NCBI GenBank assembly: GCA_963715595.1
Contig: OY970255.1
Coordinates: forward strand, 1,663,784 to 1,727,783
Source of the DNA: an uncultured Actinomycetota bacterium
Lineage (GTDB): Bacteria > Actinomycetota > Actinomycetes > Actinomycetales > CAWJMD01
Length of the DNA stretch: 64,000 nt
Reading direction: 5' to 3'
Position numbers and translations under genes: made by a program. The notes under the pieces are model-generated. The model worked only from the letters and a program-made list of their open reading frames with translations, was not told the origin of the DNA and searched no databases. Below are positions 14,487 to 16,899 of this stretch, piece after piece (the first letter of the stretch is position 1; the number at the start of each line of letters is the position of its first letter).

Positions 14487-16268
14487 TCAGCCGGACAGCC
14501 GCTCCAGACGCGTGCGCAGCGACGCCTCGCGGTGCGCGTTGCCGCGCAGGCCGACGTACCGCTCACCGAACGCCGCGAGCAGCGCGTCGTCGAGGCGCCG
14601 CACCGCGCCCGGCGGGTACCGGTAGCCCATCCGCGCGGTGACCGCCTCGGCGTCGACCTCCCGCAGCACCGCGCCGAGCTCGACGAGCGAGTCGATGCCG
14701 AGCTCGAGCAGCAGACCGGAGATCCAGGCGTAGTGGTCGGTGCGCGACCAGCCCGCCTCGGCGTACTGGCCCGCGAGGAACGCGGCCAGCTCGCGCGCGC
14801 TGATGCGCGGGTCGTCGTCGACCGGTGCTGGTGCCTGCTCGGTCATGCCGGCCTGCAGCCGGTCGCGGATCTCGGAGAACTCGCGGTCGGCCAGCTCGAG
14901 CAGCCCGGCCGCGAGCGTGAACCGGCGGTCGAGGTCGGGCCCGTGCTCGTCGGGAACCGTTCCCTTGTACCGGATGTCGTGCTCGAACTCGGCCCAGGCG
15001 TGCTGCAGCACGGTACGGATCTGCACCTGCGCCTGCCGCCCGCGCAGGGGCGACAGCGCGGGCTGGCTGTCGCGGGCGGCGTCGAGCCGGACGAGGAGGT
15101 GGCGGCTGGCGTAGCCGAAGCGCCCCTCGCTGGCTGTCTCGCGCCCCATGTCGCGGTCGTCGACCACCACCACCTGGTCGTCGAGCAGGTCGGCGACGGC
15201 GTCGACGTCGCTGTGCACGTAGGTGATCACGCGCAGCCCGATCACGTCGGTGATCTGGGTGAGCGGGTCGTCGAAGGCGGGCACCCCGTCGACCACCCGC
15301 GCGGCCTTGCCCGCGAACGACGCGACGCTCTTGGCGCGACCGGTGACGCTCAGGTAGTTGATCCCGGCGTCGTCGAGGATCGCGGTGACCAGGCCGACCC
15401 ACTGCTCGGCCGCGTCGGCCAGGCCGGGCTGCAGCTCGCCGTAGGCCCGCACGGCGTCGCGCACGACGGCGGTGTGGTCGGGCGCCTCGCGCCGCGTGCG
15501 CGGCGACGGCGTCAGGCCCTCGGGCAGCGTCGGCGTGACGACGTACCCGGTGCGGCCGTCGCCGTACGTCGTGGTGGCCTGCGGCCGCCGCTCGGCGAAC
15601 AGCGCGACGTAGGCGGCGACCACGGCGTCGACCTGGTCCTCCACCTCGCGCAGTCCGCTCTTGCGGGTGGCGGTGGTGGCGGCCGCCCGCAGCCGCGCCC
15701 ACTCCCCGTCGTCGCCGCCGAGGTGCAGCGCCGGGTCGGCCGCCGACAGCCCCTCCAGGTGGGCCATCAGCAGCAGCAGCTCCGCACGCAGGCCCTCCAG
15801 CGTCCGCCCGGGCTTGTTCTTGTACTTGAGCGTGCGACCCAGCCGGAACAGCGCGACGGTCGCCGGGTGGGGGTAGACCTCGATGCCGCGGCGGCGCCGG
15901 CGCGAGCGCGGGTTGATGTCGAGCCCCAGGCGCGCGCAGATCCGTGCGCCGCGCGGGACCCCGCTGAACTCGGGCTTGCCGGTGTTGGACGGGTGGGCAC
16001 CGGCGTCGAACCGGGCGAAGTCGGCGTTGAGCAGCGCCTCGGCGGGACGGTTGCCGGTCGGGTTGGTGACGATCAGCGGCGCGTCGACGGCCACCAGGCA
16101 CCGGCCCTCGACGTACGGCCCCAGCGCGTCGACCACCTGGTCGTCGGTGCGCACGGTCGAGACGTGCACCAGCGTGCCGGCGTCGTCGAGGACGGCGAGG
16201 CCGGTGGGGTTCTTCTCGCCCCAGGCGAGGTCGATGCCGACGAAGTGCACGGCCCCACCCTGCCGCAC
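14487..16268 (-). CDS. actRel-type bifunctional protein: N-terminal DUF429 (RNase H-like) domain fused to a RelA/SpoT (p)ppGpp-synthetase domain
   Basis: The N-terminus has [21 protein letters not shown] and [10 protein letters not shown] (DUF429/RNase H-like). The C-terminal half has [35 protein letters not shown] and [22 protein letters not shown] (RelA_SpoT synthetase motifs). Confidence 0.85.
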   Translation of the reverse strand: [593 protein letters not shown]

Positions 16269-16275
16269 CGTCTCC

Positions 16276-16899
16276 CTACGCCTCGAAGCGGCTCGGGTCG
16301 CCGGCGCCGACCCGCACGACCTCCGGTGCGCCCGAGGAGAAGTCGACGACCGTGGTCGGCTGCGTGCCGCACTCGCCGGAGTCGACGACCACGTCGAGGA
16401 CGGCGTCGAGCTCGTCCTTGACCAGCCAGCCCTCGGTCATCGGCTGCTCCTCGTCGGGCAGGATCAGGGTGCTCGACAGCATCGGCTCGCCGAGCTCGTC
16501 GAGCAGGGCGCGCACCACCGCGTGGTCGGGGATGCGGACGCCGACCGTCTTCTTCTTCGGGTGCATCAGCCGCTTCGGCACCTCGGCGGTCGCCGGGAGG
16601 ATGAAGGTGTACGAGCCGGGGGTCGCCGCCTTGACCGCCCGGAACACCGCGTTGTCGATGTGCACGAGCTGACCGAGCTGGGCGAAGTCGCGGCACAGCA
16701 GCGTGAAGTGGTGCTTGTCGTCGAGGCGGCGGATCGCGACGATGCGGTCGCGTCCGGCCTGGTTGCCCAGCGCGCACCCGAGGGCGTACCCGGAGTCGGT
16801 GGGGTAGGCGATGAGCCCCCCGTCGCGGACGGTCTGCACGGCCTGCCCGATCAGCCGCGGCTGCGGGTCGTCGGGGTGCACGTCGAGGTAGCGGGCCAT
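16276..16899 (-). CDS. yciO: YrdC/Sua5-family protein, YciO subfamily (TsaC paralogue)
   Basis: VHPDDPQPRLIGQAVQTVRDGGLIAYPTDSGYALGC, HHFTLLCRDFAQL, TPGSYTFIL, KKTVGVRIP and LGEPMLSSTLILP resemble E. coli YciO as I recall it, more than TsaC. Confidence 0.75.
   Translation of the reverse strand: MARYLDVHPDDPQPRLIGQAVQTVRDGGLIAYPTDSGYALGCALGNQAGRDRIVAIRRLDDKHHFTLLCRDFAQLGQLVHIDNAVFRAVKAATPGSYTFILPATAEVPKRLMHPKKKTVGVRIPDHAVVRALLDELGEPMLSSTLILPDEEQPMTEGWLVKDELDAVLDVVVDSGECGTQPTTVVDFSSGAPEVVRVGAGDPSRFEA

Follow-up and report, generated by a model that had tools for sequence, protein, structure and literature searches.

A RelZ/RnhD-type fusion of a DUF429 domain and a RelA/SpoT-type synthetase domain with glutamine at the Syn4 glutamate position in an uncultured actinomycete

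The stretch of 64,000 nucleotides (nt) analysed here, hereafter the window, comes from an uncultured Actinomycetota bacterium (contig OY970255.1 of assembly GCA_963715595.1, positions 1,663,784 to 1,727,783 of the forward strand). On its minus strand it encodes a fusion protein of the actRel type, in which an N-terminal DUF429 domain is followed by a RelA/SpoT-type small alarmone synthetase domain and a C-terminal helical domain (Table 1). The minus-strand open reading frame (ORF) 14487..16268, encoding 593 amino acids (aa), is present as the first-pass annotation of this DNA had described it, and the peptide motifs quoted there were all found in the translated protein. However, the true length is likely to be 587 aa, counted from a GTG codon at 16250. 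In a nucleotide alignment this codon coincides with the ATG of the orthologue from Angustibacter speluncae (locus L081), and it agrees with the family consensus MHFVG in an alignment of 39 homologues; we therefore took it as the start codon, and the in-frame GTG at 16268 is probably six codons too early. A protein of 587 aa in NCBI/ENA (P0001), encoded on a 3.8-Mb contig, is 100% identical. Residue numbers throughout refer to the 593-aa frame, which begins at the alternative GTG. The GC content is normal and uniform over the region, and no full-length copy of actRel was found in a search of 72,556 plasmids, so that a mobile element was rejected as an explanation of the locus. The interval 12000-21000 of the window gave no match in Rfam.

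The N-terminal DUF429 domain, which had been proposed from acidic motifs, was confirmed by a Pfam profile search (Table 1). The full-length AlphaFold model has a mean predicted local distance difference test score (pLDDT) of 74, while the DUF429 domain was modelled at a pLDDT of ~90 and shows the beta-beta-beta-alpha-beta-alpha order of the RNase H-like fold. D13, D62, E130, H134, D211 and D214 are invariant in the 39 homologues; D13 ends strand 1 and D62 lies just past strand 4, in keeping with the acidic site by which RNase H-like proteins are recognised (PMC3985635). The nearest viral folds of this domain are RuvC resolvases (E 9e-5, target-normalised template-modelling score (TMt) 0.57) and terminase nuclease domains, which agrees with the placement of DUF429 in clade D of the RNase H-like superfamily together with RuvC, YqgF and terminases (Majorek et al. 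2014, PMC3985635). No DUF429 relative in the PDB was detectable by sequence profile. Moreover, DUF429 was the only Pfam family matched in the N-terminal half. It shares no homology with RNase HII of the RnhB type, and the "RNase HII" name of the mycobacterial protein RelZ rests on activity assays only.

The presence of a RelA/SpoT synthetase domain was likewise upheld, both by a match to the Pfam family RelA_SpoT (PF04607; residues 310-436, E 2.5e-14) and by a RelQ-like fold, the model of this domain matching RelQ (PDB 5dec) at E 4.8e-8 and a TMt of 0.72 in Foldseek. The NCBIfam model RelQ/YjbM gave a sub-threshold match over residues 308-473. In a residue alignment to RelQ (5f2v, 5dec and 2be3) made by phmmer, Syn1 (R311/K313/S317/K321, RxKxxxSxxxK), Syn2 (D341/G344/R346, DxxGxR) and Syn3 (Y386/H390, YxxxH) are intact, as are H423, E429, H430, Y434 and K435, and the equivalents of RelQ R46, K48, S52, K56, R59, D72, R77, R105, Y116 and H120 are all present. 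Among the 39 homologues, the positions examined in Syn1-3 and Syn5 are invariant or nearly so. The earlier description of the synthetase core as complete did not survive this comparison, in which the Glu of ExQIRT is replaced by Gln414. Syn4 reads Q414-V-Q-I-R-T in the window protein, according to both the RelQ alignment and a check of the codon, and Q414 corresponds to E139 of RelQ, E335 of RelA, E323 of RelSeq and E325 of RelMtb, with the numbering checked against the PDB chains. Judged from this alignment, Gln would stand at the position of the second metal-binding carboxylate, so that any alarmone synthesis by the protein would have to be weak or proceed by a modified mechanism.

The same position was then compared across the family. 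Among 238 full-length fused homologues, a sample biased towards relatives of the window protein, Q occupies the Syn4 position in 219, S in 9, E in 7 and A in 3, which leaves 231 (~97%) with Q, S or A in place of Glu. At the DNA level, the loci that were fetched, covering species representatives and close relatives, carry CAG or CAA in 71 cases, TCN in 12, GCN in 3 and GAG in 1. The non-Glu state was found in Nocardioides, Kineosporia, Intrasporangium, Ornithinimicrobium and Georgenia, and the sequence flanking the position stays invariant while Q, S and A interchange within it. More distant stand-alone relatives keep Glu at Syn4, and the few fused proteins with E are basal in a rough neighbour-joining tree, beside these E-keeping stand-alone relatives. 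The pattern suggests that the fused lineage may have lost the carboxylate at an early stage and that the site is now free of constraint, with nucleotide binding probably kept. A 528-aa protein from a JGI metagenome (P0206) has two tandem RelA/SpoT synthetase domains, with intact ExQVRT...QHAWAE motifs at 158 and 382.

The RelQ-like fold ends near residue 474. The C-terminal extension noticed in the first-pass annotation does exist, although it comprises ~120 aa and not ~150 aa. Its six-helix domain, modelled separately (Table 1), is as conserved as the catalytic core in the homologue alignments. No Pfam family covers it, and a comparison of its model with the PDB, CapRel included, yielded no fold match, all E values being above 2 (best 2.7). 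Stand-alone relatives of 336-360 aa align over residues 270-592, with the C-terminal domain included; the domain is therefore a feature of the actRel-type lineage, and not an add-on comparable to the antitoxin domain of CapRel.

Table 1. Features of the actRel region, listed in the order of minus-strand transcription, with positions given in the window
Feature	Position	Strand	Description and evidence
Mem2	18183-18545	minus	small membrane protein, no Pfam family; overlaps Mem1
Mem1	17762-18190	minus	small membrane protein, no Pfam family; overlaps Mem2
aldose-1-epimerase-family gene	16899..17765	minus	288 aa; Pfam PF01263; start by comparison with L081
yciO	16276..16899	minus	207 aa; Pfam Sua5_yciO_yrdC, E 4.6e-43; directly upstream of actRel
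yciO-actRel junction	16251..16275	minus	25 nt, from the yciO stop to the actRel start
actRel (RelZ/RnhD-type) gene	14487..16250	minus	587 aa from GTG 16250; ORF, Pfam, identical P0001, start alignment, translation
DUF429 domain, RNase H-like fold	15570..16238	minus	residues 11-233; Pfam PF04250, E 1.9e-25, profile positions 1-207 of 214
small-alarmone-synthetase fold	14847..15473	minus	residues ~266-474; Pfam PF04607, phmmer, Foldseek
codon CAG, Gln414	15027..15029	minus	position of the catalytic Mg-binding Glu of ExQIRT
six-helix C-terminal domain	14490..14798	minus	residues 491-593; separate model, pLDDT 81, predicted template-modelling score (pTM) 0.75
yccF	14016..14414	minus	YccF-family inner-membrane protein; 72 nt downstream of actRel; Pfam/NCBIfam

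The assignment to the actRel-type fusions of DUF429 and RelA/SpoT domains, as in MS_RHII-RSD/RelZ, was borne out by Pfam, by the names of homologues and by the literature. Members of actRel with an N-terminal DUF429 domain were noted by Atkinson et al. 2011 (PMC3153485), and the DUF429 plus RelA/SpoT combination was listed in Actinobacteria by Majorek et al. 2014 (PMC3985635); the architecture has thus been known since 2011-12, and the family is widespread in Actinomycetota. A homologue search returned 3704 proteins at E<=1e-5; the top 120 of them, at 72-100% identity, have both domains without exception, and some bear the NCBI name "bifunctional ribonuclease/(p)ppGpp synthase". When the database was clustered at 50%, just one of the 150 best representatives, P0121 (65% identity), matched over the full length. 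Across several actinobacterial families the protein is 64-90% identical. The characterised member, RelZ of Mycobacterium smegmatis (also MS_RHII-RSD or RnhD; MSMEG_5849), has 567 aa and shares with the window protein the order of DUF429 then RelA/SpoT, a similar length and an Actinomycetota host. Homologue searches started from the window protein, from the DUF429 protein P0166 of Mycolicibacterium phlei and from the E-type fused protein of locus L078 yielded only nearer relatives or stand-alone DUF429 proteins, RelZ not being among them. RelZ was reported to be hexameric, with interdependent domains, to be inhibited by single-stranded RNA and pppGpp, and to make pGpp, ppGpp and pppGpp even without Mg2+ (PMC7591505, PMC5566576, PMC10500699).

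Other known proteins resemble the window protein in part. Stand-alone proteins of the actRel/RelS type (336-411 aa) have the same synthetase and C-terminal region, with 38-48% identity over residues ~270-592; in contrast to the window protein they lack DUF429 and retain the canonical E of ExQ[IV]RT where the window protein has Q. These database proteins are probably orthologues of Corynebacterium glutamicum RelS (about 350 aa). RelQ and RelP of Firmicutes (SAS1/SAS2; PDB 5dec, 5f2v and 6ewz) have the same catalytic fold, whereas the window protein has Q414 at the place of RelQ E139 and adds the N-terminal nuclease domain and the C-terminal helical domain. Proteins consisting of DUF429 only, of the type of M. 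tuberculosis Rv0776c, are single-domain proteins, unlike the fusion; one of them, P0166 of Mycolicibacterium phlei, shares 56% identity with the N-terminal domain of the window protein across residues 7-257. The P0166 gene (L085 5001-5750; CP014475) lies beside purB and near purD and purC, and its product is mis-named in some sources as a "GTP pyrophosphokinase / RelA/SpoT domain-containing" protein, although it has no such domain. Finally, a C-terminal domain likewise follows a RelA/SpoT-type core in CapRel and other toxSAS proteins, but that domain is unrelated, and these proteins are patchy and mobile, whereas the window family is broadly conserved and was not found on plasmids.

We next describe the genes around actRel. 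In the order of minus-strand transcription the string runs Mem2, Mem1, the aldose-epimerase-like gene, yciO, actRel and yccF, so that actRel does not head it, as had been stated, but is second to last with only yccF behind it. The aldose-epimerase stop overlaps the yciO start by 1 nt. The gap of 8 bp once given for yciO and actRel has to be corrected to 25 nt when counted from GTG 16250; it would be 7 nt with the start at GTG 16268. A promoter and terminator scan found no terminator-like or promoter-like site in this junction. The identification of the neighbour as YciO held, and it is a true orthologue: it matched E. coli YciO (1k7j) over its full length at 3.1e-65, as against 7e-11 for TsaC (1hru), and it is a single-domain protein of 207 aa without a SUA5 domain. 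The statement that YciO has no settled function agrees with a published account, in which its function is unsettled and a role in RNA metabolism is suspected (PMC12506659).

The first-pass annotation had regarded the linkage of actRel and yciO as worth noting, and we asked whether it is conserved. In species-representative genomes, tblastn confirmed an actRel relative at 521 pattern-matched stretches; 80 species-level loci were fetched with 6-kb flanks, and the neighbours seen in the window were searched for there by tblastn. YciO occurs within 6 kb of actRel in 2 of the 80 loci, at a distance of 3.4-5 kb, and is adjacent in none. YccF and a HAD hydrolase were found in none of these flanks, and neither the species loci nor the close relatives have YccF beside actRel. 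In an all-against-all clustering of the flanking ORFs, the commonest neighbour family was present in at most 10 of 85 loci. The ORF calling behind this clustering was crude, an antisense ORF having been chosen instead of yciO in the window, and its negative outcome is safe only together with the targeted tblastn search of the 80 loci. On both results, any conserved operon partner of actRel was rejected. In the close relatives (88-90% identity) an unrelated gene lies between yciO and actRel: in A. speluncae (L081/L082; 89% identity) a 485-aa SMI1_KNR4 gene on the opposite strand, and in L088/L089 (88-89% identity) a 724-aa gene on the same strand that has no Pfam family. In L083 and L084 (82% and 76% identity) three or four genes intervene. 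Conservation of the linkage was thus contradicted by the survey, and the slot that parts the two genes forms a small hot spot for the turnover of genes.

Comparison of the window with L081 located the event. Homology stops at the yciO stop codon and restarts ~20 nt upstream of the actRel start, and the 25-nt junction retains ~20 nt of native actRel leader joined straight to the yciO stop. Because of this break and resumption, we read 16251..16275 as the scar of a recent, lineage-specific deletion in the variable slot. The adjacency of yciO is a one-genome accident, and a shared function is not indicated. Two of the intervening genes can be described further. The SMI1_KNR4 (SUKH-1) gene of A. 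speluncae spans L081 4450-5907 (-). SUKH proteins often serve as immunity proteins. The 724-aa gene (L088 1819-3993 (+), L089 1798-3972 (+)) stops 7-28 nt short of the start of actRel.

The genes conserved together with yciO are the two that encode small membrane proteins and the aldose-epimerase-like gene; actRel is not one of them. The block lies at 16276-18545 (-) in the window, with the full Mem2 and Mem1 pair (17762..18545) at its head, and at L081 2201-4446, L083 656-2990, L084 1-3409, L088 1-1693 and L089 1-1688. In these loci yciO is always translationally coupled to the Aldose_epim gene, with an overlap of 1 nt or, where the order is swapped, 4 nt. The two membrane-protein genes directly precede the yciO/epimerase pair in L083 and L088; in L084 a GCS2-family gene stands between the membrane-protein genes and yciO, and a PNPOx-like gene comes after the pair in both L083 and L084. 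This block is the real conserved context of actinobacterial YciO. Several further ORFs were observed in and around the region. The very long ORFs 13284-16421 (+), 15883-17178 (+) and 14563-16101 (-), of up to 1045 aa, run antisense or out of frame to the real genes and are typical artefacts of DNA with 74-76% GC, not genes. A 470-aa ORF at 10026-11438 (+) has a Cys/His-rich end (…CTFPGCAVPAARCDLDHQVPH…RCHRWK…); judged by eye, we take it to resemble the HNH-endonuclease (DUF222 / 13E12-repeat) proteins common in actinobacteria.

We consider it likely that the gene is an ordinary chromosomal member of the RelZ/MS_RHII-RSD/RnhD family, with three parts in one polypeptide, and that its adjacency to yciO stems from a recent deletion. 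The first part would be a DUF429 nuclease domain of the RuvC/terminase-like branch of the RNase H-like superfamily, the second an actRel-type small alarmone synthetase domain, which by analogy would transfer pyrophosphate from ATP to GMP, GDP or GTP, and the third the conserved C-terminal helical domain that the stand-alone relatives also carry. The protein would probably form an oligomer with mutually dependent domains, as its characterised relative suggests. Deletion of the DNA that parts yciO and actRel in all close relatives would have produced the 25-nt spacing and probably put actRel under read-through transcription from the yciO block. Several points weigh against this account. In RelMtb, D265 and E325 were reported as Mg2+ ligands necessary for synthesis (PMC10500699), and RelA'(E335Q), which carries the same change as Q414, is a standard catalytically dead control (PMC4432633). 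Because of these two precedents and Q414 itself, the "(p)ppGpp synthase" half of the annotation does not appear secure for the clade of the window protein. Orthology to RelZ is presumed from architecture, database names and the literature. Deletion of the gene in M. smegmatis gave no growth, ultraviolet or peroxide phenotype (PMC5224475), and the physiological role is unsettled even in that organism. In addition, being separated from yciO by a tight 25 nt, actRel could be co-transcribed with it in the window's genome.

The loss of the Syn4 glutamate leaves room for another view of the synthetase domain, as a pseudo-enzyme or nucleotide sensor that binds ATP, guanine nucleotides or an alarmone, makes no (p)ppGpp in the canonical way, and instead controls the DUF429 nuclease or the state of oligomerisation. 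The near-absence of Glu from the fused proteins, in both the residue and the codon counts, speaks for such a domain, as do the exchange of Q, S and A amid invariant flanks, the basal place of the E-type fusions next to E-keeping stand-alone relatives, and the use of E335Q as a dead RelA mutant. The retained Syn1-3 and Syn5 positions are compatible with nucleotide binding by homology to RelQ, and domain interdependence has been published for RelZ (PMC7591505). However, RelZ was reported to make pGpp, ppGpp and pppGpp even without Mg2+, the substitution would be compatible with activity if RelZ also proved to be without Glu, and the homologue sample leans towards the relatives of the window protein. 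On balance, we regard a sensor in place of a synthetase as rather unlikely for the window protein. For the main fused clade as a whole, it is a tentative possibility that the catalytic Glu is naturally absent, with drift among Q, S and A, and that the RelA/SpoT domain either acts as a sensor controlling the RuvC-like nuclease or carries out a non-canonical, metal-independent transfer. The latter route, if true, could explain the "Mg2+-independent" activity reported for RelZ.

Two further proposals concern what the gene works with and what it is for, and both seem to us very improbable. One holds that actRel and yciO form a functional operon of RNA metabolism, with YciO working together with the nuclease and alarmone synthetase; the two genes share a strand and lie 25 nt apart, the scan having shown neither a terminator-like nor a promoter-like site, they are 0-3.5 kb apart in the Angustibacter-like clade, and YciO is suspected of a role in RNA metabolism (PMC12506659). 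However, 78 of the 80 species have no YciO within 6 kb, every close relative has a different gene, sometimes on the opposite strand, between the two, the junction is a deletion scar, and YciO has conserved partners of its own in the epimerase-like gene and the pair of small membrane proteins; an actRel-yciO operon is thus largely refuted by synteny. The other follows the parallel once drawn with fused toxic alarmone synthetases, and sees in the protein a toxSAS/CapRel-type effector that is toxic or acts against phage, in which the C-terminal domain would sense and auto-inhibit while toxicity would come from the nuclease or pyrophosphokinase. In PADLOC, PDC-S44 (PDLC05019) matches the DUF429 domain at 1.8e-79 (264.6 bits) and PDC-S33 the synthetase at 1.4e-8; the gene neighbourhood is highly variable, and a SMI1_KNR4 (SUKH-family) gene adjoins actRel in one relative. 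Nevertheless, PDC systems are candidates named through guilt by embedding and are not validated, and no validated defence model was matched, PADLOC returning only these two candidates. Neither CapRel nor any other PDB entry matches the C-terminal domain in structure, the domain is common to the stand-alone relatives, and the match to CapRel is confined to the shared synthetase core, with template-modelling scores of 0.16-0.26. The conservation of the protein across several actinobacterial families at 64-90% identity and its absence from the plasmids searched are unusual for defence genes, and the M. smegmatis deletion caused no change in growth (PMC5224475). With these results the parallel to toxSAS proteins was not sustained. 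As to the strength of the PDC-S44 match, close DUF429 relatives are presumably among the genes embedded in BREX, DISARM or type I restriction-modification loci.

Read as an ordinary chromosomal member of the RelZ/RnhD family, the gene carries little weight as a find, given that the architecture has long been described, that the identical protein is public and that the yciO adjacency is an accident of one genome. Its Syn4 position calls for caution in annotation, because most of the sampled fused proteins are without the residue reported as necessary for synthesis in RelMtb and have the Gln that makes a dead RelA; to call them "bifunctional ribonuclease/(p)ppGpp synthase" may thus claim more than the clade of the window protein does. 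If RelZ shares the substitution, it may underlie the reported Mg-independent activity of that protein, and if RelZ keeps Glu, the clade of the window protein departs at a catalytic residue from the one member that has been characterised. The oddity at Syn4 thus bears on the contested physiology of M. smegmatis RelZ/RnhD, and on whether these proteins are synthetases, sensors or something else.

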